A DNA stretch of 64,000 bases, taken from contig JAGIQG010000014.1 of NCBI GenBank assembly GCA_024679065.1, positions 6,386,001 to 6,450,000 on the forward strand, written 5' to 3'. Every line of letters begins with the position of its first letter. The stretch's first letter is position 1. The stretch comes from Sphyrna mokarran. Taxonomy: Eukaryota. The notes below the pieces were generated by a model. The model saw only the letters and a program-made list of their open reading frames with translations, was not told the origin of the DNA and did not search any database. Below are positions 459-55,931 of the stretch, in pieces. The position numbers and the translations under genes were made by a program.

Positions 459-1390
459 CGAATCTCGTGACCATCGTGATCCTCGCCAAAGGAAATTGCG
501 GCCTTTCCAGATGTGTCTCTATCTACATGGTGGCCATGGCAACAGCAGATTTGTTAGTGATGCTTATCAACGTAATTTTGTATTACATTCTGAGAAAACG
601 TTTTCCAAATTCATTCCTCTCCTACACTGTTGTTTGCAAATTAATGATATATATGCTTTGTAATAACCTGTATATGTCAGTATGGTTTACAGTTTCATTC
701 ACGTTTGACCGATATATTGCTATATGTAGTCAGAAGTTTAGAACAATCTATTGCACCGCGAGAACAGCGGCTGCAGTTTTAACAACATCCTCAGTCCTTA
801 TCTATTTGCAGAACTTGTACGTTTGGTTTGCATTTGAACATGGAAGCACAAGAAATGGTGTTCAATGGGGTGTCGTCCCTAGGCAGGATTTTTATACTTC
901 TCAAATTGGTGATGCATTTGTCTTGTTACAAAGTATCTTATTGAACTGGATTCCGTTCATTTTGATATTACTGTTTAATTTTTTGACAGTCAGAAGGATT
1001 TTGTTGTCCAGCAAAGCTCGTGCCGGCTTGCGGGGTCAAAACAGTGAGAATCAGAATGATCCAGAGATACAGAACCGAAGGAAGTCCATTATTTTATTGT
1101 TCACTATTTCTAGTAGCTTTCTATTGTTGTGGGCGACAAGAGTCATTAGTTATCTAGCCAGTCGGATGCTCGTTTTTATCCGGCCGGATTACACATCTGC
1201 TGCAAATATCGCCACCGAAACCGGAACACTGCTCATTCATTTAAGTTCATGCACGAACACGTGCATTTACGCAGCTACACAAGCTAAATTCAGGGAAGAG
1301 TTGAAGAACATCGTGAAATCTCCTTGGACCATAATTCTGATGTTGCAAAAATATGCGAAATTAAACCTCGTCTTCCTGTTCAGGCAGTAG
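459..1390 (+). CDS. gpr139-like: GPR139/GPR142-like class A orphan GPCR, copy 1, coding exon 2 (exon 1 lies upstream of the window)
   Basis: Pyrimidine tract plus acceptor ttttacAG at 457-458, phase 1. Open frame ANLVTIVIL, YMVAMATADLL (TM2), SFTFDRYIAIC (DRY), LSSCTNTCIYA (NPxxY variant), stop at 1388-1390. The ORF-track ATG at 428 is intronic by comparison with copies 4 and 5. Confidence 0.85.
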
Positions 1391-1590
1391 TGAAGTACAC
1401 GTTTGAATGCTGGCCTTCCTGCAACGAAAATATAACGTGTTTCTTTAAATAAGGGACTCGAGAAGGGCTGGGCCATTCTTTGTTGCATCTTCTGGTGCCT
1501 ACTGCTATTCGCCAATTTTGGTGCTTCTTTTGTTGCGGCTTACTCCAGTCAGTGTGCACTGAAAACACGAATGATATCATTCAACCGTGG

Positions 1591-1596
1591 AATAAA
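1591..1596 (+). promoter_or_regulatory. Putative polyadenylation signal AATAAA of GPCR copy 1 (AGTAAA at the same position in the other copies)
   Basis: ggAATAAAatggg about 200 nt after the stop codon, just before the minisatellite. Confidence 0.35.
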
Positions 1597-3699
1597 ATGG
1601 GTTCGCATCAGTCCTAGCTGCCGTACAGTGTACGCAAAGTCTTATGCCGCATGTTCTCCGGTACATCGCAGGTACTGCCTTGCAGCGCACCTATTGCTTT
1701 ACACTGTAGGTGCTATCTTACACCGCAGTACTGGCTTAAACTATAGGAACTGCGCTGCACCATAGCTACTGTCTACACCGCAGGTGCTGACTACACTACA
1801 GTTGCAACATTACACAGCAGGTATTGCTCACACCACAGGGGCTATCTTATACTTTCTCCGCAGGGTCACCGCAGATACAGCCTTAAACCTGATGTACCAT
1901 CTTCCAGCACAGGTGATTTATTGCACGACAGGAATCGTCCTGCACTGTAGGCACTATCTTGAACCACACTACTCCCTTATACTGCGGCTTCTGCTTGGAA
2001 CCGCAGGCATTAACTTACACGTCACGTACTGCCTTACATCGCAGGCAATGCATACACCACAGTTTCTCCCCTAAACCACAGTGGCTGCCTTATACCACAT
2101 ACTGCCTTACACCACAGGTACCGCATTACACCGCATGTATTACCTGGAACCGCGGACGCTGCATTACACCACAGATGCGGCCTTGCACCAAATATGCTAT
2201 TTTTCACTTAAACTACTTCCTTACGCAACTTGTACACCGCATGGAACTGCGAACACAGCAGCTAGTGCCGGGAACCGGAGATACTGCATTAACAGTGCAA
2301 ACACCGTCTTTCACCACAGGTTCAGTCTTACGCACAGGCGATGCACCGCAGCACAGCTACTGCCATTCCTCTCATGTTCTTCCTTATAGAACAAATATGT
2401 CTTACACCGATCGTTCTGCCTTATACCGCAGGTACTGCCTTACACCACAGTTTCTGGTTACAGCACCGTTTCTGTCTAACTCCGCCAATGTCTCACACCA
2501 CAGGTTCTCCTTGAAAACGCATTCGCTTTCTTACACCACAATACTAATTTGAACCAAAGGTAATGCCTTGAACCACTGATACCGCATTGTATAACAGATT
2601 TTACAGCGAAGGTACTTTCTTGCAAACACGATACCGCTTTACGCCATGGAATTTTATTGCACAACAGATACTGCCTTGCACTACAGCTAATGATTTGCAC
2701 AACAGATATTACAGCTACTGCCTTATGCCACAGGTTCTGCCTTACACTGCAAGTACTCACTGACTCTAAAGGGGCTAACTCACACTGCATACGGTGCCTT
2801 AAAACCTTAGCGTCTATGTAAACTACCTGGATCTTCAGATGCTGCATTACACCACAGAATTTAAACTGAAGCTACTTTCTTACACCATATGTATCACGTT
2901 TCGCTGTAAGCGCTGCCTTACACCACAAATACTTTTTATTTACACCGCCGCAGACTCTTTACACTGCACTGCAGCAATGGCATCCCTTCCAGCATAAGTG
3001 CTGCCTTCAGCGTAGTAGCTACCTTCACTGTAAGTACTGCCCTTCACCACATGTACTACCTTCTACCGCAGGTACTACCTTCCAAAGCGTATATTGTCTT
3101 GACTCCAGAAACAGCATTACAGCGCAGTAAGTACACAAATGGTACTACTTTTCACTGCGAGGAATGACTTCATCTCAGACGCTTCCTTACTCAAAGGTAC
3201 TGTCTTCACCAGTGGTGGATGGCACAGGATAGAAGGCCTTTCATTGAGGTACTGCCTTACTCCACAGCTTTCACAAGTACTTCTATAGGCCACAGGTACT
3301 TTCTTCACTGCCGGAATTGGTTACATCACAGTAGTTGTCTTGTAGCTCATTTATTGCCTTACACCTCAGTTGCTATCTACACCACAGTTGATGTCTTAAA
3401 CCAGAGGTGTTGCCTTACATCATAGATGTTGCCCCACACTGAATCTACTTCCTTACAACATAGCTATTGCCTTACACCACAGGTACTGCCCTGCACTGCA
3501 AGCACAACATAGCACCACAGCTACTGCCTTACACCACAGATGTTCCCTTACCAAACGGTTACTGTCTTATACCACAGGTGCTACCTTTAACCACAAGTTT
3601 TGTGCTACGCCACCGATATCATTTTGCACCAGATACTGCTTGAGACCTCAAGGAACGGCTTATAATGCACAAGTGACGCTACTGTGTTTTAAGAAATGC

Positions 3700-4480
3700 A
3701 ATTTAATCATGTCTCCGTAGTAATAAGCTGGCACCGAGACGCCTGCCTAAATGTCATTTAATTGCTTCTTAAATTATTAAATTGTTTATTTACCTATTTT
3801 CAGTCTGAGCCTAATGCATTCTCATGAAGTTTATGGCAGATGTTTGACAGGACAAGTGGAAGAGTTTTTCTTTTCCTCGCAGGAGTTCTTTCACTTTCAG
3901 TTTCGCTTGCTGGATTGTTAGTAGTTGCTATGACTCCGGGCTAGATGCATGTTTTCAAAATTTGGCTGGCTGATGAAAATAGTCTTTCGTACTTCTCAGC
4001 ATGAACGTTTTGCTGTTGGTGGTTTACTAGCTGGAGGAAAGCAGTGACACTATATCCACCTCCAGTGTGGGAGTCTCAGAATGCAGAAGCCGGTTTTCCC
4101 TTTCTCCATCCAAAGGATTAGTAACTATAGGGTCTGCAGAACTGAAAAATCTCTCAGTATATGTATTTTCTGTGTTAAATCGAAATTAGGTTCATATGTT
4201 AGTAAGTATGTTGTGTTGGTACAGCACATTGAACTATGAAGTTTGACAAACAATGGTTCTTTCTGTTACTGTTTGCGATTGGTAAAAGTTACAGTTAATT
4301 TTCTTTCTGTCTGTTAACTGTATTCTGGAATTAACTTTGTGTGATTAAAGCTCACCGCTTTGTCGTTTAATTCATACCTGAGGTGAAACATCTCATGGTT
4401 ATCCACACCGAATTCAAAATAGAAAACATAGGCACAGACTGACTTCAGAAAACACATGAAATTTCTGACCTGGATTATAG
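3700..4480 (+). mobile_element. AT-rich ~0.8 kb insert in the minisatellite, possibly an old L1/Tx1-clade ORF2 C-terminus plus 3' UTR (paralogues ~19200-20040, 30520-31360, 44210-45040, 58320-59160)
   Basis: The paralogue translation W-x8-W-x-x-IF-x-x-x-S (WRLWQFWNYWGQIFDRIS) and a frameshifted ILL..WK match the spacing of fish L1 HMFWxCxxLxxFWxxIF and ILxxWK motifs. Very decayed. Confidence 0.35.
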
Positions 4481-5093
4481 CACAGACAAGTACTACCTTA
4501 CACTGCAGTTGCTGCGTTACACGACAGTGCTGTCTTATGCACAAGCTACTTGCTTACATCATAGCTTCTGCCTTAAACTACTGGAGCTTCTTGACAGCGC
4601 AGGAACTGATTGCACCACAGGCATTGAATTGCACCATACTCACATCCGTACACTGCACGTATTGTTTTCCACCGCAGGTACTACCTTCCAAATGTAAATA
4701 CTGTCTTCACTGTGCGAACTGCTTCACAGAGCAGTAACGATGTTACATAAATGGTAGTGTCCTATACCTTCGGAGGATGCCCCAGCCTCACTGCCTTCGC
4801 CACAGGAACTTCCTCCACTTCAAAAGTGTTTTATATTGCAAATACTGCATTATATCAAAGGTTTACATAACTGGTATCGAATACTACAGATATGCTGCCC
4901 TGCGCTACAGATGTGCCTTAAACCGCAGGAGGTGTCTTACACCACAAGTTCCGTTTTGGACCACAAATACTGCTTTACATCACAGATGCTGCCTTGCACC
5001 AAAGTTAATACCTTACACCACAGTTCTGCCTTGCACATCAGTTATCCTCTGAAACTGCTGGATCAGACTTAAATCACATGTGCTTTAATCACA

Positions 5094-5252
5094 TGTGTTA
5101 TAATCCAGGTCAGAAATTTCATGTGTTTTCTGAAGTCAGTCTGTGCCTATGTTTTCTAATTTGAATTTGGTGTGGATAACCATGAGATGTTTCACCTCAG
5201 GTATGAATTAAACGACAAACCGGAGAGCTTTAATCACACAAAGTTAATTCCA
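5094..5252 (-). repeat. Inverted duplication of 4326-4483, unique to unit 1
   Basis: 5094-5252 is the reverse complement of 4326-4483 with few mismatches. It is absent at the equivalent site of the other units. Confidence 0.9.
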
Positions 5253-8381: not shown

Positions 8382-11372
8382 CTCTATGGGTGGAGTTGAG
8401 GAATAGGAAGGGAGTGGTTACTCTGTTGGGCGTTTACTACAGACCGCCCAACAGCCCGCGGGCCGTGGAAGAAGGGATATGCAGCGACATTCTAGATAAG
8501 TGTAGGAAAAATAGGGTAGTAGTAGTAGGAGATTTCAATTTTCCTGGAGTAGATTGGAGAGAGCCCAGAGCTGTAGGAGTGGACGGGGAGGAATTTGTAC
8601 AGTGTGTTTTGGAAGGGTCCTTGGAGCAGTATGTGGATGGCCCGACTAGAGAGGGGGCTATAATGGATTTGGTTCTGGGGAATGAGCCAGGGCAGGTGGT
8701 TGACATCGAGGTAGGAGAGCATGTGTCAAATAGTGATCACAACTCTGTCTGCTTTAGGATATTAATGGAAAAGGACGAGACCTGCCCAAAAGGGAAGGTA
8801 TTTAACTGGGGGAGGGCTAGATACAGCCAGATTAGGCAAGATCTTAAAGATACTGACTGGGATAAGCTTTTCGAGGGCAGGTCGACGAGGTACATGTGGG
8901 AGTCTTTCAAGGAAAAACTAAACTCTCTGCAGGAAAGATACGTGCCGGCAAGGAGGAAGGATGGGAAAGGTAGGATTAGAGAACTGTGGCTTACCAGGGA
9001 TATTGAGGACTTGATCAGGAAGAAGCGAGAGGCTTACATTTGATCTAGGCAACTGGGGACTGAGACAGCGCTGGAAGATTATAGAGAGTGTAGACGGGAT
9101 CTTAAAAGGGGTGTTAGAAAAGCAAAAAGGGGCCACGAAGTGGCTCTGGCAGGTAGGATTAAAGAAAATCCTAAGGCATTTTACTCCTATGTAAGGAGCA
9201 AAAGGATGGTTAGAGGCAAGATTGGACCTCTCAGGGACAGAGGAGGGAATCTATGCTTAGAGCCTGAGGGAATGGGGGAGATCCTGAATGAATACTTTGC
9301 GTCGGTTTTCACGCAGGAGACTGGACAGATGTCTGTGCCTGATGTTGACAAAGTTGAGGATCGGTTGAGGGAAATAAGGATTACGAGGAAAGAGGTGTTG
9401 GGGCTGTTAGGCAGCTTAAAGACATATAAAGCTCCGGGGCCTGATGGCATTTACCCCAGGCTGCTAAGGGAGGTGAGGGAAGACCTAGCTGGGCCTCTGA
9501 CGCAAATCTTTGTCTCTTCCTTGGACACAGGCGAGGTCCCAGAGGACTGGAGGATAGCAAATGTAGTACCGTTGTTTAAAAAAGGTCAGAGGGATAACCC
9601 AGGGAAGTATAGGCCGGTGAGCTTGACTTCAGTTATAGGTAAGCTAATGGAGAGGATCCTTAGGGACAGGATGTATGAGCATCTGGAGCGCTGCGATCTG
9701 ATCAGGGATACGCAGCATGGCTTCGTCAAGGGGAAGTCTTGTCTTACGAATCTGGTGGAATTTTTTGAAGAAGTGACAAAAACAGTGGATGAAGGACAGG
9801 CTGTTGATGTCGTCTACATGGATTTCAGTAAGGCGTTTGACAAGGTTCCTCATGGTAGACTGATAGAGAAGGTGAAGGCGCATGGGATACAGGGTCGGGT
9901 ATGTAGATGGGTCGAGAACTGACTTGGGAGGAGGAGACAGAGGGTAGTAGTGGAAGGCTCTTTTTCCGGCTGGAAGCCTGTCACTATTGGAGTGCCACAA
10001 GGCTCAGTACTAGGTCCTCTTCTATTTGTGGTCTACATAAACGACTTGGAAGTAGGGGTAGGTGGTGAGATCAGCAAATTTGCTGATGACACCAAGATGC
10101 TTGGATGTGGCGGGTACAGAGGAGCAGGCCAAAGCAATACAACGGACATAGATAGGTGGGTAGACTGGGCAGATAGATGGCAAATGGAATTTAATCCAGA
10201 TAAATGCGAGGTGATGCATTTTGGCCGGAAAAATGTAGAAGAGAGTTATAGGATAAAAGGTAAAACTATTCGAAGTATAGAGACGCAGAGAGACTTGGGG
10301 GTGCAGGTTCACATGTCTTTGAAGGTGTCTTCACAGGTGGAGAAGGTGATAAAGAAAGCGTATAGTATGTTAGCTTTCATTGAAAAGGGTATAGAATACA
10401 AGTGTAGGAGTTTGATGTTGCAATTGTATAGAACGTTGGTTAGGCCTCATTTGGAATACTGCGTCCAGTTCTGGTCGCCGTACTATCGGAAGGATGTGTA
10501 GTCCTTGGAGAGAGTGCAGAGGAGGTTTACCAGGATGCTGCCTGGTATGGAAGGACTGTCTTATGAGGAACGATTAAATAGACTGGGGTTGTTTTCCCTT
10601 AAAAGACGTCGGCTTAGAGGGGATCTAATAGAGGTGTATAAGATTATAAGGGGTATAGATAGAGTAAATGGTGGTAAACTTTTTCCATCTTCAGAAATGG
10701 ATAGGACGAGGGGTCATGGCCTTAGGGTGAGGGGTGCTATGTATAAGACGAATATTAGAGGGCAGTTTTTCACACAAAGGGTAGTGGGGGTGTGGAATGC
10801 ACTGCCGAGTAAGGTGGTGGGAGCAGGCACGCTAGGGCTGTTTAAAGGTCTCTTGGACAGCCACATGAGTGGTATGCAGATAGAGGGATATAGTAGGACT
10901 GTTTAACTATGGCTTTTTTTCCACAGGTAATTCGGTCCATACTTGACCATCAAGGAGCATGCATTTGGCAGGTGGTGCGAGGACAGCTCTTGGATGTTGA
11001 TTCATGGGTTGCCTGGTGCTTCATGTCGTAAATTAGTGCTTTATCTGGACCATCTGAAGGGCACCATGACAGCTCAGTGACTATCGCTGTAGCTGTGCAG
11101 ACACTTGGAATTGGGCCGGTCTCTGCGGGAGTTTGCGCGTTCTCCCTGTGGTTGCGTGGGTTTTCTCCGGGCGCTCCGGTTTCCTCCCACATCCCAAAAA
11201 TTCGCTCTTAGGCTGATTGGGAAACAAATTGTCCCTACATTGAGACTCTTCCATAGTAGGAATAACCTATAATTAGGATAGGATAATGGAATTGTTACTA
11301 TATAGTTACGACGGCGGCGCGGGCTCGTTGGACCGAAGGGCCTGTTTCCCGTGCTGTGTTGCTCTAAAAAAA
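8382..11372 (+). mobile_element. 5'-truncated CR1-clade (HER1-like) LINE: ORF2 (APE endonuclease C-terminal part plus RT, to 10906) and a long V-SINE-containing 3' UTR; TSD AGATGT
   Basis: YYRPP, GDFN, SDH, KAPGPDG, GVPQGSVLGP, FADD and WNALP lie in one frame with in-frame stops at 9041, 9920 and 10499. AGATGT is at 8376-8381 and 11373-11378, with single-copy empty sites at 48777 and 63712. Confidence 0.93.
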
Positions 11373-11896
11373 AGATGTGAAACGTGTGTGAAAAAATAAC
11401 AATACTTTTGAGCTATGTAGCCAACAACGCTGCAGTGGCGTAAAATATTTTGCAGCTACAATCCCATATTTTTGATTGTGTGGAGGTAATAATGTTTGGA
11501 ATTTATTACAAATTTTGTGGTTTACAGTGTGAAAGTTGGTACTGGTCAGAGCCTTGATGATGCCATGGAGACGGGAGGAATCTATCCAGATTTAGAGGAG
11601 ACTGAACTGTGAATTGTTCATCCCATGTTCCAATCTCTTTTTGACTTGAAACTGCAACGCTGCAATAAATCCAGCTCTGTAAGTGTCCAGCCCTTGAACT
11701 GTTGAAATAATATGTTTTTTTTCGTTTTCCATTCATCGGTGGAATGTATTGCACTCAGGCCTGGAACAAGCAAATTTAAAACTTTTGTCAAGAGTTTTGA
11801 ATATCAGGTGGCCCGCTCGTGCATAGGTCGTTTTGACTTTGAAAATGAGCTTTGTTAATATGAAAGAAGTCTTTTCAAACAAACCAAATTAAAACG

Positions 11897-12045
11897 AACA
11901 ACAAGAAATGAGAACAAAACAGCACAGGAAACAGGCCCTTCGGCCCAACAAGCCCGCGCCGCCACCCGATGTTCCCACCTCTACCCGCGATCCCTGTCCA
12001 TGTTTATAGATCTATGGATTAAAAACCAAATTTGAGACAATTTAG
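11897..12045 (-). mobile_element. 3' tail remnant of the composite V-SINE-like element (rest deleted); duplicate at 23214-23362
   Basis: Same insertion site and sequence as 49302-49765, joined to hAT sequence at tttag|tattg. Confidence 0.75.
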
Positions 12046-12611
12046 TATTGTCATGCGTGTTCAAAATAATTACAACTCAATGGAAGCAGAGGTAAACTAA
12101 CGTTAGCAAAAATAAAATCATGACTTTTGGATGATGAAAAGCTCGCAAGACACAGGAAGTCAGTTTTTTGATGAAACTAGAAACAATGGCACCTTTTTCA
12201 GAACGGAAATAAAAGATCATCATTGAGACTATCAATGTTACTTGTGACCAAAGAATAATGAAATTGCAGAATAGAATGAACCCCTGAAGAAAACTGTAGA
12301 CTTATCTTTGTGCATTTCGACTGATGTTGGATGAGAATACCAAAGGCTACTGAAGTGAGACCGCAGTATAGAATATTCTTCCTGGCATCCTCAGATGAAG
12401 TAAGTGTCGATTTCAATTCAGCAATTGCAGGCATGATTTTTGGAAGTAACTAAAAAAGCATGAAAGCAGTTCATCAGAAATAAACTTGCATACTATTGTG
12501 AACTGTGCTTTTCTGTCCTCTGGATGATGGAGGACGGGGCATGACGTCATTGGCATGATGGGCATGATGTAATTGAGGCGGGGTTGGAGGCTGATATCAA
12601 GGTGAGTAATC

Positions 12612-12870
12612 CTTTTTATTCAGTTATGGGATGGGGACACCGCTGGTAGAAGTCATAATTCACTATTAATCCCAAATCGTCTTTAAGAGAGCAGGTAGAG
12701 TCAAATAGGTTGCTGTATACCTGGACTGGCATGCAGACGACAGTAGGTGAGGATGGAATGTTTCCTTCCCCATTGGCGTAAGTGAAACCGACAAGTATTT
12801 ATGAAAATTCATTCATGGTGACCACAGGATTTTTGTAAATGATGATTTGTAATTCTGCACCCTGATGACA
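12612..12870 (-). mobile_element. Old SacSINE1/DeuSINE-like SINE (paralogues ~23929-24187, 37097-37355, 50512-50770)
   Basis: atgggatggggacaccgctgg..agagtcaa..ggtgaggatggaatgtttccttccc..agtgaaacc..ttcatggt resembles the reverse strand of the common shark DeuSINE. Recognised from memory, not by search. Confidence 0.55.
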
Positions 12871-13424
12871 ATTCACACCCGGAACTCCACAATATACATT
12901 TTATATTAGAATTTTACAATTGGGTTTCAATGCTTCGAAGCCAACTACCTTTGCTGCCTCAACAAAGGTCACAGAATCAATACACAGATCAAATTCTCAG
13001 ACACACAGATACTCAGAAGATCCAGTCTGGTCAGGATTTTCTCAATGTCATTTAGGAAAACTATGCTGGTGAGTTGATGCAATCGCCAGAATGCCAGACA
13101 ACTGATTTCATCTCAAATCAGCGGCGCACAAAAGAAATGTTTCAAGGGAACTTTTCAAGTTATCATCCAAGACAACAAAAATTTGCACAAATTAAATACT
13201 GGCCAAGTGATCAGAGGAGACTTCTGCAAAAGCAATTTCAATGGGTGAAATATCGTGTCCACACGGCAAGAAACTATTTTCATCGCTTATTGATTGACTG
13301 AGATCTCAAATAGGTAAAATATATCAACGCATATATCTGAAATTTTCTTTGCAGCTCGGTTGCATTGAGGTCAATCGCCAGCAGTAGAGTGATGCAACGT
13401 GTCCATCAAGCTGTGTCAAGCTCT

Positions 13425-13860
13425 CGGTCCGCCTTGTATAACAGAGGGAATACACGCGATGTGCCGTGAGAGGGCTGTTCTTGGATTTTTCAAGAGTAGC
13501 CTGTTGCTTCACATTGTTAGTATACGCTTGACCTGGGCCAGTTGATGGGCAACACGACAGCTGACTATTGCTGTGCTGTGCAGATACATGGATTTGGGCC
13601 CGTGTCTGTGGGAGTGTACGCATTTTCCCCGTGCTTGCGTGGGTTTTCTCCGGGTGCTCCCAAAGATCCCAAAGATGTGTTCTTAGGCTGATTGGCAGAA
13701 CAAATTCTCCTAAATTGTCTCAAATTTGGTTCTAATGCATAGATGTATAAAAATTGACAGGGATCATGGGTAGAAGTTGGAACATCGAGGTTGCAGAGCG
13801 GGCTCGTTGGGCCAAGGGCCTGTTTCCCGTGCTGTTTCGTGTTTTGTTCTTTGTTCTTTG
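13425..13860 (+). mobile_element. Composite V-SINE-like element (intron copy), 5' end lost in the exon-1 deletion; duplicate at 24742-25177
   Basis: V-domain gtctgtgggagtgtacgcattttccccgtgcttgcgtgggttttctccgggtgctcc plus CR1-type tail gggccaagggcctgtttcccgtgctgt. Confidence 0.8.
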
Positions 13861-14599
13861 TCACTCACTGCTCACTGATTCAGCAAACTGATTGCGAGCA
13901 GGTCATTTTTGCAATGTCTTTTCTCTGCCGAGATAAATTATTGAATATCAGTGAGCGTCTCAACAGTTGGCATGGCGTGTGAGCCGCGGTTCAGCTCAGA
14001 AGAATGTGACACCTGAAGTTTAAATTCCCTCCCAACATTAACGGAGATTAGGCTGAAACTCTTCCCTTCCGACAGTTCATAGATCTGTATGCGAATTATT
14101 TGCAGTGACAATCTGTATTCTTACTTCTTTAAGATGACAATACCTCGAAATGCGGCCTCTCCGGAAAGCAACAATCACTGGAGTGTATTTCAAGGAAAAC
14201 GAAAACCTGTTCAGGAGGCTGCTGCTCTCCTCAGGGTTGCAAATCAGTTCTGTTGTTTCCCTTTCTGTGCCCGACAGCTCCCTTCCGCTGATGATAAACG
14301 TTAGAATCCCACCTTTTCGAATTAATTTCAATAGCTATTTTCTCATCTTACTGATTTATTTGAAAGACTATTATTATCTACATAACGAGTGAATATTACG
14401 CTTACCGCCCCGATATTGGACGCAGCTCTTGAAAGTAAACTTAAGACGCTAAGTTCAACGGATTGCCTCACCGTGCCGCCGCGATCACTTATACAATTGG
14501 TGGGTGCATCACCTGACACAAACCTCGTGGTGGATGGATTGAGTTGTCAAAGCTGCAGCGCAGCAAATTACTATATAGAAATGAATCATTTGTTTGGTC

Positions 14600-15720
14600 G
14601 CATTCATTTTATTTATTTGTGTGATGTGGGCATCCATGTCCTTTATTTTTCATTTTTCGCTGCTCTTCGGATACGGGTGGTGAGTTGCTTTCCTGATTCG
14701 CTGCTTTCGAAGTTGTAAGTGCACCCACGGTGCTGGTAGAGCAAAAGAGAGTTCCAAGATTTTGACACAATTACAGTGAAGGAACAGCGATATATTTTGC
14801 ACTCTGTTCGTTCAGTGACTTTGTGATAACATTAAGATGGCGGTGTTCCAGATATCTGCTGCCCGTTACTTTTTAGATGATAGTGGTGGAGTGTTTGTTA
14901 TAATGCTGTGTAATGTGCCTGGTGAGTTCCTTAAGTGCTGCTCACGGCTGCTATAGAGCGTCTGCGGTAGCGGTAGTTAACATTTTGTGGGCCTGTTAGC
15001 AATCCGACTGCCTGCTTTGTCCTTCATTGTCTAGAACATCTTGAGGGTCTTTGGAGCTGCCTTCGGGCAGGTAAGTGGAGAGTATTCCATCACTCCATCA
15101 ACTTATAAACAGTGCATAGGATTTTGGGAGACAAGAGGTCTGTTATTCATATTCGCAGCATTCCAAACCGCTGATCTGCTTTTGTGGACATTATTTATTT
15201 GCTAAAATTAGCCAAATAAAGCGCATGCTAAAATCTGAAATAAAAGTAGGGAATGCTAGAAAAAGCGCCGACTATTTTCCTCCCGACTGAAGCTGTCAGC
15301 CGTGCTGAGATTTTCTCAACTTTTTTTTTCATAGGGCTCGCACAGTTCAGGTATTGTTTATGGTTGATACTAATAGTTGCGGACTCAATGATGGTATCGA
15401 ATGTCAAGGGGAAGTGGTTAGATTATGTATTGGTGTAAGCGGCCATTCCCTGAGATTTGCGTGACACAGCCATTATTCCCACTCGTGAGCCCAATCTGGA
15501 TTTTGTCCAGATCTTCCTGCATTTAGACACGGGCTGCTTCGGTATCTGAAGATTCACATGTGATACATTGTGTAGCCATCAATGATCATTCTCAATTATG
15601 ACGTTATATTGGAGTAATATAGAAGAAGATGAAGACGTTTGGGACGAGGACACTCACTGAGGAAATGACAAAATGTACAATTTATTGAGCAAACCGGAAT
15701 TTCCTTCCTGAGGATTTCCC
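14600..15720 (-). mobile_element. Old antisense CR1-like LINE remnant in the GPCR intron, with a short palindromic shark repeat at ~15200-15330 (paralogues ~25917-27037, 40010-41120, 53420-54530, 1-130)
   Basis: gatgtgggcatc..ggtggtgagttgc..gagttccaagattttgac..cagtgaaggaacagcgatatatt..ggcaggtaagtggagagtattccatcac resembles an abundant elasmobranch LINE 3' region. Boundaries are approximate. Confidence 0.5.
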
Positions 15721-16187
15721 TTAGGGCACGCGGCATGAAGTTTGATTTCGACTTAGGGTGAATCGAGTCTCGGGCGAGTGGCAGGGGTGATGCTAAATGT
15801 AATTAAATCGATATAGATGCGAGGAAGCTGATCCCAGATCACCCGGTTTATACAAGTCTCCGAAATCATAACTGATGCCATTTAAGACTCGGGTTCTTTA
15901 GTTGTCGATGGTGCTGAGGAGAGCTTTCCATTAACATTCTGTAGACTGAATCTCGCGACCCTCCCCTCAACATGTAGAAAAGATTATACGTCTGTGACTG
16001 CGACTGGGAGAACATCGCAGGTGCTTAAATATTGATATTTCAATGCATATATCACCTCTGCTGTCTTGTGCAATAGACTGAGTCCATGTGTATAACTGAG
16101 CAAAAGTGCATCCAAACATTTCACGAAAGTATACTGAGTGTAACCAAACTGTTTCCATGACTTGGTTTTTCTCCTTTGTTTTTATAG

Positions 16188-17116
16188 CGAATCTCGTGAC
16201 CATCGTGATCCTCGCCAAAGGAAATTGCGGCCTTTCCAGATGTGTCTTTATCTACATGGTGGCCATGGCAACAGCAGATTTGTTAGTAATGCTTATCAAT
16301 GTAATTTTATATAACGTTTTGACAAAACGTTTTCCAAATTCATTCCTCTACTACACTGTTGTTTGCAAATTAATTATATATATGCTTTGCAATAACTTCT
16401 ATATGTCAGTATGGTTTACAGTTTCATTCACGTTTGACCGATATATTGCTATATGTAGTCAGAAGTTTAAAACAATCTATTGCACCGCGAGAACGGCGGC
16501 TGCAGTTTTAACAACATCCTCAGTCCTTATTTATTTGCAGAACGTGTACGTTTGGTTTGCATATGAACATGGAAGCACAAGAAATGGTGTTCAATGGGGT
16601 GTCATCCCTAGGCAGGATTTTTATACTTCTCAAATTCGTGATGCATTTGTCTTGTTACAAAGCATCTTATTGAACTGGATTCCGTTCATTTTGATATTAC
16701 TGTTTAATTTTTTGACAGTCAGAAGGATTTTGTTGTCCAGCAAAGCTCGTGCCGGCCTGCGGGGTTAAAACAGTGAGAATCAGAATGATCCAGAGATACA
16801 GAACCGAAGGAAGTCCATTATTTTATTATTCACTATTTCTAGTAGCTTTATATTGTTGTGGGCGACAAGAGTCATTAGTTATCTAGCCAGTCGGATGCTT
16901 GTTTATATCCGGCCGGATTATACATCTGCTGCAAATATCGCCACCGAAACCGGAACACTGCTCATTCATTTAAGTTCATGCAAGAACACGTGCATTTACG
17001 CAGCTACACAAGCTAAATTCAGGGAAGAGCTGAAGAAGGTCGTGAAATTTCCTTGGACCATAATTCTGATGTTGCAAAAATATGCGAAATTAAACCTAGT
17101 CTTCCTGTTCAGGTAG
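16188..17116 (+). pseudogene. gpr139-like: GPR139-like GPCR pseudogene, copy 2
   Basis: Acceptor at 16186-16187. CAA>TAA nonsense at 16766-16768 in ICL3, T>K in TM7 (SSCKN), and exon 1 with its promoter deleted at junction 13424|13425. Confidence 0.9.
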
Positions 17117-17344
17117 TAGCGAAGTACATGTTTGAATGCCGGCCTTCCTGCTACAAAAATATAACGTGTTTCTTTAAATAAGGGACTTTAGAAGGACTGG
17201 GCCATGCTTTGTTGTATCTTCTGATGCCTACTGCTATTCGTCAGTAAGTTTTGGTGTTTCCTTCTGTAGCGGCTTACTCCAATCAGTGTGCAATCAGGGA
17301 AAATACGAATGTTATCATTCAACAGTGGAGTAAAATGGGTTCGC

Positions 17345-20833: not shown

Positions 20834-20834
20834 A

Positions 20835-28433: not shown

Positions 28434-28659
28434 TAGCGAAGTACATGTTTGAATGCCGGCCTTCCTGCTACAAAAATATAACGTGTTTCTTTAAATAAGG
28501 GACTTTAGAAGGACTGGGCCATGCTTTGTTGTATCTTCTGATGCCTACTGCTATTCGTCAGTAAGTTTTGGTGTTTCCTTCTGTAGCGGCTTACTCCAAT
28601 CAGTGTGCAATCAGGGAAAATACGAATGTTATCATTCAACAGTGGAGTAAAATGGGTTC

Positions 28660-36960: not shown

Positions 36961-38598
36961 CAGAAATGAAATTGCATACTATTGTGAACAGTGCTTTTCT
37001 GTCCTTTAGACGATGGAGGACGGGGCATGACGTCATTGGAATGATGGGCATGATGCAATTGAGGCGGGGTTGGCGGCTGATGTCAAGGTGAGCAATCCTT
37101 TTTCTTCATTATGGGATGGGGACACTGTTGGTAGAAGTCAGAATTCACTTTTAATCCCAAATCGTCCTTAAGAGAGCAGTTAGAGTCAAATAGGTTGCTG
37201 TATACCTGGACTGACGTGCAGACGACAGTAGGTGAGGATGGCATGTTTCCTTCCCCATTGGCATAAGAGATACCGACAACTATTTATGACAATTCATTCA
37301 TGGTGACCACAGGATTTTTTTAAATCATGATTTGTAATTCTGCACCCTGATGACAATTCACACCCAGAACTCCACAACATACGCTTTATGTCAGAATTTT
37401 ACAACTGGGTTTCAATGCTTCAAAGCCAACGACCTTTGCTGCTCAACAAACGTCACAAAATCAAGACACAGGACAAATAATCATACACACATGTACTCGG
37501 AAGATGCAGTTTGGTCAGGATTTTCTCAATGTTATTGGGAAAACTGTTCTGATGAGTTGATGCAATCGCCAGAATGCCAGACAACTGATTTCATCTCAAA
37601 CCTTCGGTGCCGGGCTGAAGAATAGCGTACGCTTCAGTGGCGCACAAAAGAAAAATTTCAAGGGAACTTTGCAAGTTATCATCCAAGACAACAAACATTT
37701 GCTCAAATTAATTACTAGCCAAGTGATCAGCGGAGACTTCTGCAAATACAATTTCAATGGATGAAATATCGTGTCCACACGGCAAGGAACTATTTTCATC
37801 GCTTATTGATTGACTGAAATCTCAAATAGGTAAAATATATCAACGCACTCTGAAATTTTCTTTGCAGCTCGGTTGCATTGAGGTCAATCGCCAGTAGTAG
37901 CTTGCTGCCACTCGTTCAGAGTGATGCAACATGTCCATCAAGCTGTGTCAAGCTCTGGCTCTCAAACTCTTACTGGTGCGTCAGAGGGACGGTAAAGAAT
38001 GCTACAAAGCCTAATCTATATTTCACGGTTAGGCAAGAGACACTCTGAAATAGTATCACTTCAAGTAATGTTTCATTAGCTCATACATATTGAAGTTCAA
38101 TTAGCATTGATAATGATAGATTAACACTAATGGTAAATTTGTAGTTTAATTCCTACAATTCAGTTTGTAGTAAAGACACTGGAAAGTAAGATAATTGTTA
38201 CAAATAATAACGGCTATTCATCACTAATTATCACAATGCCCATTAAATGAAAAGTTATGGACACAGGAGCGAAATACACGTGAGCTGAACATTGATGCAT
38301 GGTTTAAATAAGTGCATGATGAAGCTGACAGAATCAAACATTGTGTCCATGGGGATGGTTCATTCTGTCTTCAGCGAGCCAGCGCAGAACACATGTGCTC
38401 ATGGTCTAACATTGTGTCGATTGGCCAACCCGGATGCCCTCCAGAGGAAAGGGATTTTTTGATTTAATTTGCTGAAAGAGACGCAATTAATGCGTAGCCT
38501 GATTTTGCCCTCCGGGAATGTATTACATTACAAAAGGCGACAATCTAGGAATCTTTCACGCAATCGAGCGAAACGTTTGCATTCTTCTCGAAATCACA

Positions 38599-38668
38599 AT
38601 GGCCCGCCCATTAATTCTACAGATCAATGAACTTTTCTATCCCGTGCTGGCAGCTTTTGGTACGCCCG
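38599..38668 (+). CDS. gpr139-like: GPR139-like GPCR copy 4, coding exon 1 (MARPLILQINELFYPVLAAFGTP)
   Basis: acaATGG Kozak context, YPVLAAFGxP TM1 start, and donor G|gtaagt in phase 1. It joins CG at 41607 to give P-A-N-L-V-T. Confidence 0.9.
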
Positions 38669-41606: not shown

Positions 41607-42538
41607 CGAATCTCGTGACCATCGTGATCCTCGCCAAAGGAAATTGCGGCCTTTCCAGATGTGTCTCTATCTACATGGTGGCCATGGCAACCGCAGATTT
41701 GTTAGTGATGCTTATCAATGTAATTTTGTACAACGTTTTGAGAAAACGTTTTCCAAATTCATTCCTCTCCTACACTGTTGTTTGCAAATTAATGATATAT
41801 ATGCTTTGTAATAACCTGTATATGTCAGTATGGTTTACAGTCTCATTCACTTTTGACCGATATATTGCTATATGTAGTCAGAAGTTTAGAACAATCTATT
41901 GCACCGCGAGAACAGCGGCTGCAGTTTTAACAACATCCTCAGTCCTTATCTATTTGCAGAACTTGTACATTTGGTTTGCATTTAAACATAAGAACACTAT
42001 TAATGGTGTTCAATGGGGTGTCGTCCCTAGGCAGGATTTTTATACTTCTCAAATTGGTGATGCAGTTGTCTTGTTACAAAGTATTTTATTGAACTTAATT
42101 CCCTTCAGTTTGGTATTGCTATTTAATTTTTTGACAGTCAGAAGGATTTTGTTGTCCAGCAAAGCGCGTGCCGGCCTGCGGGGTCATAACAGTGAGAATC
42201 AGAATGATCCAGAGATACAGAACCGAAAGAAATCCATTATTTTATTGTTCACTATTTCTAGTAGTTTTGTATTGTTGTGGGCGACAAGAGTCATTAGTTA
42301 TCTGGCCAGTCGGATGCTTGTTTATGTCCGGTTGGATTACACATCTGCTGCATATATCGCCACCGAAACTGGAACACTGCTCATTCATTTAAGTTCATGC
42401 ACGAACACGTGCATTTATGCAGCTACACAATCTAAATTCAGGGAAGAGCTGAAGAAGATTGTGAAATTTCCTTGGACCATAATTCTGATGTTGCAAAAAT
42501 ATGTGAAATTAAACCTAGTCTTCCTGTTCAGGCAGTAG
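41607..42538 (+). CDS. gpr139-like: GPR139-like GPCR copy 4, coding exon 2 (spliced product 333 aa, intact)
   Basis: Acceptor ttttacAG at 41605-41606 and an uninterrupted 7TM frame with DRY and NTCIY. Confidence 0.9.
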
Positions 42539-42764: not shown

Positions 42765-45700
42765 ATCAGTCCTAACTACCGTACAATGTACGGGAATTCT
42801 TACACCGCATGTTATACGATACAGCGCAGGTACTGTCTTGCAGCCCATCTATTGCCTTACATTCTAAGTGCTATCTTAAAGTATAGGAAATGCGTTGAAC
42901 CATAGCTACTGCCTACACCGCAGGTACTGACTACAGTACAGGTGAAACATTACACAGCAGGTATTGCTCACACAACAAGGGCTGTCTTGTATTTTCTCCG
43001 CAGGCTCACCGCAGATACACCCTTAAACCAGATGAACCACCTTCCAGCACAGGTGATTTATTGTATGACAGGAATCGTCCTGCACTGCAGGCACTATCCT
43101 GAATCACACTACTGCCTTATGCTGCGACTTCTGCCTGATACCGCAGCACTACCTTACACGTCACTGCCTCACATCGCAGGCAATGCATACACCACACTTT
43201 CTCCCATAAACCACAGTGGCTGCCTTATACCACATACTACCTTACACCACAGGCGCCACATTACACCGCAGGTATTACCTTGAACCGCGGACTCTGCATT
43301 ACACCACAGATGCGGCCTTGAATCAAAGATGCTGTTTCGTGCTTGAACTACTTCACAACACAACAGGTACACCGCAGGCAACTGCTTACCCAGCAGCTAG
43401 TGCTGGAAACCGTGCTACATTACATTTGAAGCGCTGTCTTGCACCGCAGGTTCTGTCTTACGTACAGGCGATTCACCGCAGCACAGCTACTGCCATTCCT
43501 CTCATGTTCTTCCTTATAGAACAAATATGTCTTACACCGATCGTTCTGCCTTACACCGCAGGTACTGCCTTACACCAGAGTTTCTGGTTACAGCACAGTT
43601 GCTCTCGAACTCCGCACCCAATGTCTCACACCGCAGGTTCTCCTTGAAAACACATTCGCTCTCTTCGAGCACAATACTAACTTGAACCAAAGGCACTACC
43701 TTGAACCACTGAGACCGCATTGTACAACAGTTTTTACACCGAGGCTACTTTCTTGCAAAAACGATTCCGCCTTACGCCAGGAATTTTATTGCACAACAGA
43801 TAATGCCTTGCACTATACCTAATGATTTGCACAACAGATATTACACCTACTGCCTTATGCCACAGGTTCTGCCTTACACTGCAGGTATCACTGACTCTAA
43901 AGGAACTAACTCACACTGCGTACGTTGCCTAAAAACGCAGTGTCTATGTAAACCATAGGTAGTTGAATTGAATCTACTAATTGAACCATTGAATCTACTT
44001 CCTTACAACATAGCTACTGCTTTACATCACAGGTAATGCCCTGCACTGCAAGCACAGCATAGCTCCACAGCTACTGCCTTATACCATAGATGGTCCCTTA
44101 GAAAGCAGATGCTTTATACCGCAGATGCTACCTTAAACCACAAGTTTTGTGTTCTGCCACCGATGCCACTTTGCACCTCAAGGAACGTTTAATAATGCAC
44201 CAGTGACACTATTGTGCTCTAAGAAATGCAATTTAATCATGTTCTCTGCAGTAATAGGCTGACATTGAGCTGCCTTCTAAATGTCATTTAATTGTTCTTA
44301 AGTTATTAAATTGTTTATTTATTTATTTTCAATCTAGGTGTAATGCATTCTCATGGAGTTTATGGCAATTTTGGAATTGCTGGGGCAGATTTTTGACAGG
44401 ACAAGCGGAAGAGTTTTATTTTTTCCTCGCAGGAATTCTTTCGCTTTCAGTTTCTCTTGCTGATTTGTTAGAACTTGTTCGGACTCCAGGCTGGATGCAG
44501 TGGTGTATCCCTACCTGCCATTAAAAATTCTGCTGGTGAGTGGAATTAGACTTTCGTACTTTTCAACATGAACATTTTGCTGTTGGTAGTTTATTAGCTG
44601 GAGGAAAGCAGTGGCACTGTATGCACAGTGTGGGAGTCTATGAATGCAGAAGGCAGTGTTTTATTTCTCCATCCAAGGGACCACATGGTTTGCAGAACTG
44701 AAACGTCATTGAGCATTTGTATTTTCTGTGTTAAATCGAAATTAGGTGCATATGTTAGTAAGTATGTCGTGTTGGTACGGCACATTGTGCTCTGAAGATT
44801 GACATATCATGGTTGTTTATGTTATTGTTTGCGATTGGTAAAAGTTACTGCTAATTTTCTTTCTGTCTGTTAACTGTATACTGGAATTAAATTTTCTGAT
44901 CGCACCTCACTGGTCTGTCGTTTAATTCATATCTGAGGTGAAGCATCTCATGGTTATCCACACCAAATTCAAAACGCAAAACATAAGGTTTTATGACTCC
45001 ATGAAACACATGAAATTTCTGACCTGGATTTTAACCAGGCAAGTACTGCCTTACACCACAATTGTTGCGTTACAAAGACAGGTGTTGTCTTACGCATATG
45101 CACTTGCTTACATCATAGCTTCGGCCTAACAGTACTGGAGCTTTTTGCCAGCGCAGGAACTGATTGCACCAAAGGTATTGTATTGCATTATACTCACATC
45201 CTTACACTGCACGCATTGCTTTACGCCACAGCTATACCTTCGAAATCCAAATACTGTGTTCACTGTACGACATTCCTCACAGAGCAGTGAAAATGTCACA
45301 TAGATGGTACTGTCTTACACCGTCGGACAATATCTCACTCCAAAGATACTGCCTTCACCAGAGGAACTGCCTGCTTTTCATTAGTGTCTTATATTGCAGG
45401 TACTGCACTATATCAAAGGTTTATATAACTGGTGCCACGTACTACAGATATGTTGCCTGGCGCCGCAGATATATCTTAAACCGCAGGAAGTGCCTTACAC
45501 CACATGTTCCACTTTGGACCACAGATACTGCCTTATTTCACAAATGCTGCCTTGCACGAAAGTTAATACCCTACACCACAGTTCTGCCTTGCAGATCAGT
45601 TATCCTCTGAAACTGTTGGATCAGACTTAAATCACATGTGCCTTAACTGGTTATGCCTTACACCGCAGCTAATGCATTACACCACAAGTACTACCGGACA

Positions 45701-51965: not shown

Positions 51966-52034
51966 GCGACAGTCTCGCAATCTTTTACACAACGGTGCAT
52001 CGAGAGAAACGTTTGCATTCTTCTCGAAATCACA

Positions 52035-52104
52035 ATGGCCCGCCCAATAATTCTACAGTTCAATGATTTTTTCTATCCCGTGCTGGCAGCTTTTGGTACG
52101 CCTG
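52035..52104 (+). CDS. gpr139-like: GPR139-like GPCR copy 5, coding exon 1 (MARPIILQFNDFFYPVLAAFGTP)
   Basis: acaATGG start and phase-1 donor G|gtaagt at 52105. Not present in the ORF track. Confidence 0.9.
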
Positions 52105-52235: not shown

Positions 52236-52686
52236 ATCCTACGGGGACTTCGGTCCGCCTTGTATAAGAAAGGGAATACACGCGATGTGCCGTGAGAGGG
52301 CTGCTCTTGGATTTTTCAAGAGTAGCCTGTTGCTTCACATTGTTAGTATACGCTTGACCTGGGCCTGTTGATCGGCATCACGACAGCTGACGATTGCTGT
52401 GCTGTGCAGATACATGGATTTGGGCCGGTGTCTGTGGGAGATTATGCATTCTCCCCGTGCTTGCGTGAGTTATCTCCGGGTGCTCCGGTTTCCTCCCACA
52501 TCCCAAAGATGTGCTCTTAGGCTGATTGACAGAACAAATTCTCCCTCAATTGTCTCAAATTTGGTTCTAATGCATAGATCTATAAAAATAGACAGGGATG
52601 ACAGGATTCGTGGGTAGAAGTGGGAATATAGAGGTTGCGGAGCCATTGGGCCAAGGGCCTGTTTCCCGGGCTGTTTTTGTTCTTTG
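52236..52686 (+). mobile_element. Composite V-SINE-like element in the intron of copy 5
   Basis: Paralogue of 38798-39271. Confidence 0.8.
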
Positions 52687-55002
52687 TCACTCACTGCTCA
52701 CTGATTCAGCAAACTGATTGCGAGAAGGTCATTATTGCAATGTCTTTTCTCTGCCGAGATAAATTGTTGAATATCAGTGAGAGTCTCAACGGTTGTCATC
52801 GCCTGTGAGCCGCGGTTCAGCTCAGAATGTGACACCTGAAGTTTAAATTCCCTCCCCACTTTAACGGAGATTGAGGCTGATACTCTTCCCTTCCGACAGT
52901 TCATATTCTCTATGCGAATTATTTGCAGTGACAATCTGTATTCTTACTTCTTTAAGATGACAATACCTCGAAATGCGGCCTCTCGGGAAAGCAAAAATCA
53001 CTGGAATGTATTTCAAGGTAAAAGAAAACCTGTTTAGGAGGCTGCTGCTCTCCTCAGGGTTGCAAATCAGTTTCCCTTTCTGTGCCCGACAGCTCCCTTC
53101 CGCTGATGATAAACGTTAGAATCCCACCGCTTCGAATTTATTTCAATAGCTATTTTCTTATCTCACTGATTTATTTGAAAGACTATTATTATTTACATAA
53201 CGAGTGAATATTACGCTTACCGCCCCTGATATTGGACGCAGCTCTTGAAAGTAAACTTAAGACGCTAAGTTCAACGGATTGCCCCACCGTGCCGCCGCGA
53301 TCACTTATACAATTGGTCGGTGCATCACCTGATACAAGCCTCGTGGTGGATGGATTGAGTTGTCAAAGCTGCAGCGCAGCAAATTACTGTATAGAAATGA
53401 ATCATTTGTTTGGTCGCATTCATTTTATTTATTTGTGTGATGTGGGCATGCATGTCCATTATTTTTCATTTTTCGCTGCTCTTCGGATACGGGTGGTGAG
53501 TTGCATTCCTGATTCGCTGCTTTCGAAGTTGTAAGTGCACCCACAGTGCTGGTAGAGGAAAAGAGAGTTCCAAGATTTTGACACAATTACAGTGAAGGAA
53601 CAGCGATATATTTTCCACTCAGTTCGCTCAATGACTTTGTGACAACATTAAGATGGCGGTGTTCTCAGATATCTGCTGCCCGTTACTTTTTAGATGATCG
53701 TAGTCGAGGGTTTGGTATAATGCTGTGTAAGGTGCCTGGTGTGTTCCTTGAGTGCTGCTCACGGCTGCTATAGCGCGTCTGCAGTAGCGGTAGTTAACAT
53801 TTTGTGAGCGGGTTAGCAATCCGACTGCCTGCTTTGTCCTTCATTGTCTAGAACATCTTGAGGGTCTTTGGAGCTGCATTCGGGCAGGTAAGTGGAGAGT
53901 ATTCCATCACTCCATCAACTTATAAACAGTGCATAGGATTTTGGGAGACAAGAGGTCTGTTATTCACCGAAGCTTTCGAAACCGCTGATCTGCCTTTGTG
54001 GACATTATTTATTTGCTAAAATTAGCCAAATAAAGTGCATGCTAAAATCTGAAATAAAAGTAGGGAATGCTAGAAAAAGCGCCGACAATTTTCTTCCCGA
54101 CGGAAGCTGTCAGCCGTGCTGAGATTTTCTAAACTTTATTTTTCATATGGCTCGCACAGTTCAGGTAGAGTTTATGGTTGAAGCTAACAGTTGCGGACTC
54201 AATGATGGCATCGAATGTTAAGGGGAAATGGTTAGATTATGTATTGGTGTAAGCGGCCATTCCCCGATATTTGCGTGACACAGCCATTATTCCCACTCGT
54301 GAGCCCAAATCTGGATTTTGTCCAGATCTTGCTGCATTTAGACACGGGCTGCTTCGGTATCTGAAGACTCACATGTGATACATTGTGTAGCCATCAATGA
54401 TCATTCTCAATTATGTCGTTATATTGGAGTAATATAGATGAATCTGAAGACGTTTGAGCCGAGGACACTCACTGAGGAAATGACAAAATGTACAATTTAT
54501 TGAGCAAATCGGAATTTCCTTCCTGTGGATTTCCCTTCGGGCACGCGGCATGACGTTTGATTTCGACTTAGGATGAATGGAGTCTCGGGCTAGTGTCAGG
54601 GGTGATGCTAAATGTAATTAAATCGATATAGATGCAAGGAAGCTGATCCCAGATCACCCGGTTTATACAAGTCTCCGAAATCATAACTGATGCCATTTAA
54701 GACTTGGGTTCTTCAGTTGTCGATGGTGCTGAGGAGAGCTTTCCATTAACATTCTGTAGACTGAATCTGGCGACCCTCTCCTCAACATGTAGAAAAGATT
54801 GTACTTCTGTTACTGCGACTGGGAGAACATCGCAGGTGCTTAAATATTGATATTTCAATAAATATATCACCTTTGCTGTCTTGTGCAATAGACTGAGCCC
54901 ATGTGTATAAGCGAGCAAAAGTGCATCCAAACATTTCACGAAAGTATACTGAGTGTAACCAAACTGTTTCCATGACTTGGTTTTTCTCCCTTGTTTTTAT
55001 AG

Positions 55003-55931
55003 CGAATCTCGTGACCATCGTGATCCTCGCCAAAGGAAATTGCGGCCTTTCCAGATGTGTCTCTATCTACATGGTGGCCATGGCAACCGCAGATTTGTTA
55101 GTGATGCTCATCAATGTATTTTTATATAACGTTTTGACAAAACGTTTTCCAAATTCATTCCTCTACTACACTGTTGTTTGCAAATTAATTATATATATGC
55201 TTTGTAATAACTTCTATATGTCAGTATGGTTTACAGTTTCATTCACGTTTGACCGATATATTGCTATATGTAGTCAGAAGTTTAAAACAATCTATTGCAC
55301 CGCGAGAACAGCGGCTGCAGTTTTAACAACATCCTCAGTCCTTATCTATTTGCAGAACTTGAACGTTTGGTTTGCATTTGAACATGAAAGCACAAGAAAT
55401 GGTGTTCAATGGGGTGTCATCCCTAGGCAGGATTTTTATACTTCTCAAATTGGTGATGCATTTGTCTTGTTACAAAGTATCTTATTGAACTGGATTCCGT
55501 TCATTTTAATATTGCTATTTAATTTTTTGACAATCAGAAGGATTTTGTTGTCCAGCAAAGCTCGTGCCGGCTTGCGGGCTCAAAACAGTGAGAATCAGAA
55601 TGATCCAGAGATACAGAACCGAAAGAAGTCCATTATTTTATTGTTCACTATTTCTAGTAGCTTTATATTGTTGTGGGCGACAAGAGTCATTAGTTATCTA
55701 GCCAGTCGGATGCTTGTTTATGTCCGGCCGGATTACACATCTGCTGCATTTATCGCCACCGAAACCGGAACACTGCTCATTCATTTAAGTTCATGCACGA
55801 ACACGTGTATTTATGCAGCTACACAAGCTAAATTCAGGGAAGAGCTGAAGAAGATCGTGAAATTTCCTTGGACCATAATTCTGATGTTGCAAAAATATGC
55901 GAAATTAAACCTTGTCTCCCTGTTCAGGTAG
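55003..55931 (+). CDS. gpr139-like: GPR139-like GPCR copy 5, coding exon 2 (spliced product 332 aa, intact)
   Basis: Acceptor tttatAG at 55001-55002 and an uninterrupted 7TM frame. Confidence 0.9.

Follow-up and report, generated by a model that had tools for sequence, protein, structure and literature searches.

A tandem array in Sphyrna mokarran from a GPR139-related orphan receptor lineage expanded in cartilaginous fishes: a candidate chemosensory repertoire

A 64,000-nucleotide stretch of the Sphyrna mokarran genome (NCBI GenBank assembly GCA_024679065.1, contig JAGIQG010000014.1, positions 6,386,001 to 6,450,000 of the forward strand; the whole stretch is hereafter called the window) holds a tandem array of genes for G protein-coupled receptors (GPCRs). 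Do these genes represent extra copies of GPR139 or members of another receptor lineage, and what would a shark use many of them for? I found that they belong to a GPR139-related orphan lineage expanded in cartilaginous fishes. Judging from sequence, the chances are about even that this lineage serves as an external chemosensory repertoire.

The genes of the window are laid out as follows, with positions counted from its first letter.

459..1390, + strand: copy 1 exon 2, open and probably intact, with its exon 1 off the window to the left; 7tm_1 E 5e-17
13420..13428, no strand: deletion junction of copy 2, where about 910 bp including the promoter and exon 1 are gone
16188..17116, + strand: copy 2 exon 2, a pseudogene with TAA at 16766 and without exon 1
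27505..28433, + strand: copy 3 exon 2, the same pseudogene as copy 2, with TAA at 28083 and without exon 1
38415..38598, + strand: copy 4 putative promoter with CCAAT-like, CAATTA, and TATA-like (TACAAAA) motifs
38599..38668, + strand: copy 4 coding exon 1, 23 codons and 1 base, with a GTAAGT donor
41607..42538, + strand: copy 4 coding exon 2; the whole gene encodes 333 amino acids
51840..52034, + strand: copy 5 putative promoter with a CCAAT-like motif, CAATTA at 51910, and TATAAAA at 51958
52035..52104, + strand: copy 5 coding exon 1, 23 codons and 1 base, with a GTAAGT donor
55003..55931, + strand: copy 5 coding exon 2; the whole gene encodes 332 amino acids

The exon-2 acceptors, all on the forward strand, lie at 459, 16188, 27505, 41607, and 55003, which reproduces exactly the spacings of 15729, 11317, 14102, and 13396 given in the preliminary description. 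A tblastn search of the window with copy 5 recovered the five exon-2 copies (92-100%) and only two copies of exon 1; no further exon-2 copy was found on either strand. Splicing and in-frame stops agreed with the earlier count of two intact, one probably intact, and two dead copies. In copies 4 and 5, coding exon 1 measures 70 bp, and the GT-AG introns are 2938 and 2898 bp long, respectively. The stop of copies 2 and 3 is at codon 193 of exon 2, and copy 3 has the same deletion junction as copy 2, near 24741. The array was said to overrun both ends of the window; indeed, the left edge lies in the intron of copy 1, and self-alignment placed a sixth unit at the right edge. The intron of copy 1 is shorter by about 540 bp than those of the other copies, at 154-157, and its acceptor is intact. 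The window contains no flanking genes, and an Rfam scan gave no matches.

The copies evolve under purifying selection. The ratio of nonsynonymous to synonymous substitution rates (dN/dS) is 0.26-0.43 in nine of the ten copy pairs (each p<0.03, Fisher test), the remaining pair, 2 and 3, being identical. The shared sites along exon 2 switch partner: eight of the first ten join copies 1 and 4, and six of the last seven do not. Thus, the partner switching points to recombination or conversion. In copies 1, 4, and 5, 20 of 132 outer-half codons carry amino-acid changes, compared with 13 of 175 inner-half codons (p=0.04). The self-alignment, the dead copies, and the size of the family in sharks and rays all bear out the proposal of a birth-and-death array with pseudogene turnover.

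What kind of receptor is encoded? The Pfam domain 7tm_1 was found in all four copies tested, at 46-63 bits against a cut-off of 30.5, and copy 5 also exceeds the Pfam Srw cut-off (29.8 versus 22.2 bits). These were the only Pfam matches; profiles of OR, TAAR, V1R, V2R, and T2R were unmatched. A model of copy 5 exon 2 (pLDDT, the predicted local distance difference test, 86; pTM, the predicted template modeling score, 0.83) has the six helices beyond transmembrane helix 1 (TM1) and a beta-hairpin in extracellular loop 2 (ECL2). The class A motifs D2.50, DRY, and N7.49/Y7.53 are present. Compared with class A structures, the model reaches a TM-score of about 0.7, and GPR139 takes rank 25 among near-equal matches. 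The fold search is silent on the ligand because GPR139 is not singled out among the class A matches.

Sequence comparison separates the copies from GPR139. Human GPR139 (PDB 7VUG, 9M42), the product of a two-exon gene, is the best PDB sequence match, at 43 bits with the single sequence and 83 bits with the family profile; chemokine and peptide receptors come next in the profile search (59 versus 83 bits). The top scores of copy 5 among proteins from beyond the cartilaginous fishes are 122 bits with the coelacanth protein P0212, 119 bits with the salamander protein P0215, and 101 bits with a silverside protein, and these three score only 62-70 bits with GPR139. Four residues of GPR139, F109, H187, W241, and N271, are essential for activation by Trp and Phe, according to the accessible text of PMC5430874. 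The corresponding residues of copy 5 are C, Q, W, and T. Since only one of the four essential residues is kept, the ligands of GPR139 are not transferable to copy 5. Thus, the aromatic-amino-acid site of GPR139 is absent from the copies. The low bit scores and the three altered pocket residues rule out orthologues of GPR139 or GPR142, and the array, earlier taken for an expansion of these two genes, belongs instead to a separate orphan lineage, sister to an amphibian/sturgeon gene.

Some features are still shared with GPR139. The window copies have W6.48 and R6.51 and lack the proline at 7.50, and RefSeq labels such genes "probable GPR139". Unlike GPR139, the window copies have T at P6.50, and the family has many copies per genome instead of one. 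All five copies carry valine in place of the ECL2 cysteine, which most relatives have in a WGC motif (55410-55420 of the window and the paralogous sites), but they keep C3.25; both cysteines are gone from a few relatives, P0001 and P0035 among them. In the family members P0258 and P0244-P0247 the N-terminus is long and WNVTT glycosylation-type motifs recur in it, compared with the 23-residue start of the window copies.

How widespread is the lineage? Among 986 matches (E<=0.001), the best 120 all come from elasmobranchs, of 16 species, and mostly carry the name "probable GPR139". Among the matches listed, clustering at 90% identity gave at least 30 clusters for Pristiophorus, at least 27 for Heptranchias, and at least 26 for Heterodontus. 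Of 20 further representatives, 19 are named: 16 elasmobranch, one Callorhinchus, and two Branchiostoma. Trees of 59 and 36 rows were built from hand-picked matches; the outgroups other than Aplysia are probably invertebrate. Both trees have three vertebrate lineages above amphioxus, namely A, C, and B together with the shark family. In the 36-row tree, 18 chondrichthyan and four amphibian/sturgeon rows form one branch (support 100/99), and the Callorhinchus protein P0141 lies inside a 99/96 subclade of the shark family. The family is not elasmobranch-specific because this holocephalan (chimaera) member is nested within it. The label "elasmobranch-specific lineage", which came with the preliminary description, was rejected on this ground in favor of a chondrichthyan expansion. 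Since the chimaera protein is nested, the diversification likely predates the chimaera-shark split.

Clade B, represented by Pleurodeles XP_069092602.1, Xenopus tropicalis P0414, and Acipenser P0430, branches as sister to the shark family (100/99). It resembles the shark family in its short N-terminus and cytoplasmic motifs and has 29% identity to copy 5; in contrast, it has one cluster per species and keeps P6.50. Of the 25 matches in a search for lineage B, 20 are clusters that each come from a different amphibian species and one is from a sturgeon, making 21 in all. Lineage A is conserved in teleosts, sturgeon, coelacanth, amphibians, turtles, and sharks, and lineage C is a single anchovy row. 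In the accessible text of PMC6504862 (Rinne et al. 2019), coelacanth, gar, and fishes have, next to GPR139/142, the orphans GPR210A, GPR210B, and a third unnamed subtype. The three-lineage pattern of that GPR210 group agrees with the present trees, the two being compared by pattern alone. The main text of the same paper, as far as accessible, does not contain the word "shark" and describes no expansion. Clades A (P0212, P0226, P0350), B (P0215, P0414, P0430), and C (P0252) are conserved vertebrate orphans mislabeled "probable GPR139", and there was no mammal or bird for any of them among the matches listed. No GPR139 or GPR142 sequence is present among the 393 collected proteins; two motif matches turned out to be shark proteins. 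The ESM Atlas contains "probable GPR139" chordate clusters and Srw clusters, which serve as leads only. Metagenome scans for shark loci with promoters gave no matches for an exon-1 pattern and 118 matches, none confirmed, for a second pattern.

If the lineage recognizes many ligands, its paralogues should differ where the ligand binds. The alignment joined copy 5 to 120 close matches from sharks, 27 deeper rows from chondrichthyans, 21 rows of clade B, and 79 of clade A; the clade-A rows were mostly filtered to 300-365 amino acids and the remaining clade-A matches left out. The 36 predicted pocket positions, assigned by class A numbering under an assumed TM4 anchor, were compared with other helix positions. 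In the 120 shark proteins, entropy is 1.71 in the pocket, 1.33 in the rest of the outer half (p=0.028), and 0.79 in the inner half. The order is reversed in clade B (0.17 in the pocket, 0.60 in the other outer positions, 0.57 in the inner half; p=3e-5) and in clade A (0.56, 0.93, and 0.80; p=0.008). Within single shark species, pocket identity is 0.47-0.51 and inner-half identity 0.74-0.81. Heptranchias paralogues have a pocket identity of 0.51 at an inner-half identity of 0.81, compared with 0.96 at the same 0.81 for amphibian orthologues. A predicted pocket that is variable among shark paralogues and near-fixed among amphibian orthologues is the signature of a many-ligand repertoire. The earlier idea of an uncharacterized, diversified receptor repertoire is thus backed by family size, purifying selection, and pocket hypervariability. 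The predicted pocket of clade A is nearly fixed and charged (E2.61, R3.28, D3.29, R6.51, D7.36), and that of clade B has R2.61, K6.51, K6.55, E6.58, and R7.35. These distinct charged pockets suggest two endogenous ligands.

How might such a repertoire work? The window covers one section of a tandem array, whose class A GPCR genes are of a two-exon type and come from a lineage with differing predicted pockets. New copies would arise by unequal crossing-over and conversion between units of 11-16 kb, and long interspersed nuclear elements (LINEs) could seed the crossing-over. Each intact copy would bind its own ligand set and probably signal via a common G protein; alignments of shark paralogues have a conserved cytoplasmic face alongside the variable pocket. 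The predicted ligands are peptides or amino-acid-derived molecules originating outside the cell type or the body. The expressing cells would be sensory cells of the nose or taste organs, or solitary chemosensory cells. In the accessible part of PMC12208981, GPR139 is grouped with FMRFamide/MIP receptors, so that the kin of the family are receptors for peptides and amino acids. For nematode srw genes, relatives of the FMRFamide/myosuppressin receptors, turnover was used to argue for receptors of environmental peptides (PMC2576165, accessible part). The shark family resembles srw in its birth-and-death expansion out of the FMRFamide/myosuppressin-receptor neighborhood, as far as those sources go, and in the Srw match of copy 5. 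It differs in being an independent expansion in another phylum, and the environmental-peptide role is speculative in nematodes as well. Tandem clusters, pseudogenes, a variable pocket, and a conserved cytoplasmic face are also features of the OR, TAAR, V1R, V2R, MRGPR, and FPR families. Unlike these, the shark genes belong to another GPCR branch and have one coding intron in TM1.

Several observations weigh against an external chemosensory role or against the steps leading to it. Tandem turnover and variable pockets also mark the MRGPR and FPR families of immune and somatosensory cells. The Srw match occurs in only one of the four translated copies, and the ECL2 cysteine missing from the window copies is kept by 108 of the 120 shark relatives. 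Neither tree includes GPR139 or GPR142, which are excluded by scores; taken by itself, the chondrichthyan set is weakly monophyletic (87/68). The excess of pocket variability over the rest of the outer half within species is modest (p=0.039, 0.044, 0.056), and the ratio of nonsynonymous to synonymous changes in outer versus inner codons is not significant in the window (p=0.12). Both putative promoters have a homeodomain-type CAATTA motif, but no exact EBF site was found in the 64 kb, nor any EBF/homeodomain pair within 60 bp; one-mismatch EBF sites number 11, of which four are independent and two lie within 300 bp of exon 1. The catshark nose has almost wholly Go/TRPC2 microvillous neurons, which fits V2Rs (PMC10116579, accessible part), and the accessible text of PMC11979771 has no GPCR among the 50 most specific genes of the catshark olfactory library. 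Single members of any receptor repertoire would be expected to be rare in such a top list. A narrower form of the chemosensory reading, in which the family is a fifth olfactory/gustatory receptor family of cartilaginous fishes, larger than the V2R set and derived from a GPR139-related peptide-receptor lineage, is put forward only tentatively.

What does the amplified unit consist of? The preliminary description had a long transposable-element (TE) cassette amplified with each gene. The co-amplification of a unit stood up, but a unit made mainly of TEs was ruled out; the long LINE pieces are mostly copy-specific insertions. Rather, the 11-16 kb unit consists of the gene, a degenerate 19-bp minisatellite of about 3 kb downstream, spacer DNA, and a short dispersed repeat. 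The minisatellite lies 3′ of every gene copy, with a lag-19 match of 0.36-0.46 against a mean of 0.26 and a period of 18-19 by Tandem Repeats Finder (TRF). The other features of the window are listed here; the minisatellites were located by lag-19 matching and TRF, and their ends are approximate.

1500..5100, no strand: 19-bp minisatellite 3′ of copy 1
8382..11372, + strand: young LINE insertion with endonuclease and reverse transcriptase, an A-tail, and AGATGT at both flanks
9512..32149, + strand: near-identical 11.3-kb tandem duplication (9512-20833 versus 20835-32149) carrying copies 2 and 3
17500..20600, no strand: 19-bp minisatellite 3′ of copy 2
20835..22689, + strand: 5′-truncated hybrid LINE at the junction of the copy 2/3 duplication, with one extra base at 20834
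29000..31900, no strand: 19-bp minisatellite 3′ of copy 3
43000..45600, no strand: 19-bp minisatellite 3′ of copy 4
56500..59700, no strand: 19-bp minisatellite 3′ of copy 5
59779..64000, + strand: spacer and upstream part of the sixth unit, including a LINE fragment in antisense orientation near 62433-63500

The LINE at 8382-11372 has a target-site repeat, and the matching site is empty in the copy-5 unit. A dispersed repeat of about 450 bp occurs in both orientations (13424-13860, 24741-25176, 38795-39270, 49297-49775, 52229-52685), and its end resembles the 3′ tail of the LINE; the repeat may resemble the elasmobranch pair of the HE1 SINE (short interspersed nuclear element) and the HER1 LINE. 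An inverted pair of 159 bp with 97% identity (4326-4484 and 5094-5252) is present in the copy-1 unit only.

Copies 2 and 3 share 99.63% identity over 11.3 kb, and their exon 2 is identical, so that the independent copies may number four. Their 25 differences in the first 700 bp lie in the junction LINE, and the remaining 10.6 kb has ten events. The first 700 bp or so of the junction LINE is 3.6% off the LINE at 8382, and the remainder is nearly identical. This structure fits crossing-over between two LINE copies and equally a misjoin of haplotypes. It is conceivable, and I would not favor it, that the local array is partly an artefact of assembly, in which copies 2 and 3 are two haplotypes of a single locus joined through the LINE. 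A difference of about 0.1% over 10.6 kb is within the allelic range, and the hybrid LINE sits at the very junction. However, unequal crossing-over of the LINE on one chromosome with its neighbor yields the same structure. Exon 2 diverges by 4-7% among copies 1, 2, 4, and 5, which also carry private insertions and deletions. Because of these differences, those four copies are not alleles. An artefactual origin of the whole array was rejected, and the partial one touches the local copy count only and leaves the family untouched.

Might the repertoire face inward? MRGPRs and formyl-peptide receptors (FPRs) are many-ligand receptors of the surveillance type, and the shark genes could likewise be receptors of leukocytes, mast-like cells, or somatosensory neurons for microbial, parasite, or damage peptides. 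Tandem turnover, purifying selection, a variable pocket, and a conserved cytoplasmic face would fit equally, and the chemokine and peptide receptors that follow GPR139 in the profile search, though at far lower scores, lean the same way. On the other hand, no immune gene neighbors exist in the 64 kb, and the kin of the family, GPR139 and FMRFamide-type receptors, are neuronal (PMC12208981, accessible part). I regard internal surveillance as unlikely, and an external chemosensory repertoire is preferred to it. By analogy with the related sex-peptide receptor of insects, the family might instead serve reproduction, as receptors in the gonad, the oviducal gland, or sperm for seminal or mate peptides. 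The grouping of GPR139 with MIP/sex-peptide receptors (PMC12208981, accessible part) speaks for this, as do the repeated moves of catshark V2Rs to the testis, by which such shifts happen in sharks (PMC11979771, accessible part). However, the deep subfamilies are older than the chimaera-shark split and persist across orders, which would be unusual for species-recognition genes and makes a reproductive repertoire improbable. Finally, it is just as doubtful that the expansion is largely neutral, a recombination-prone, satellite-bearing unit amplifying itself with most copies as passengers and relaxed constraint behind the pocket variability: two copies out of five are dead, what the newest duplication multiplied was a pseudogene, the minisatellite and LINEs travel in the unit, and loosened ligand constraint likewise raises pocket variability, but dN/dS is 0.26-0.43, reading frames have stayed open for hundreds of millions of years across 16 species, and the pocket is more variable than the adjacent outer positions that face the lipid, a difference not expected from simple relaxation.

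How much of this was known? RefSeq already catalogs the genes under the misleading GPR139 name, and birth-and-death GPCR repertoires are known as a kind. The sister-group assignment, the pocket test, and a repertoire from an undescribed branch are new here. No account of the shark expansion was found in the literature searched, most subscription papers and the catshark supplement being beyond reach. The supplements of PMC13188829, PMC10115646, PMC8455134, and PMC4362833 (one scanned file excluded) hold no GPR139 entries, and term searches found no mention of the expansion in PMC10620051 or in a 2026 manta preprint.

Shark chemoreception is described in terms of four known families, and the catshark has few OR, TAAR, and V1R genes and about 30 V2Rs (PMC11979771, PMC10116579, accessible parts). 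A large class A family with diversified predicted pockets, annotated as GPR139, fell outside the surveys of shark chemoreceptors. Be its role sensory or immune, the family amounts to a large, so far undescribed set of receptors in an old lineage of vertebrates, and the ancestral ligand could be approached through the one orthologue that amphibians conserve. If the reading as a fifth chemoreceptor family holds, nematode srw would have its vertebrate counterpart here, and the good sense of smell of sharks, despite their very few OR genes, would be explained.

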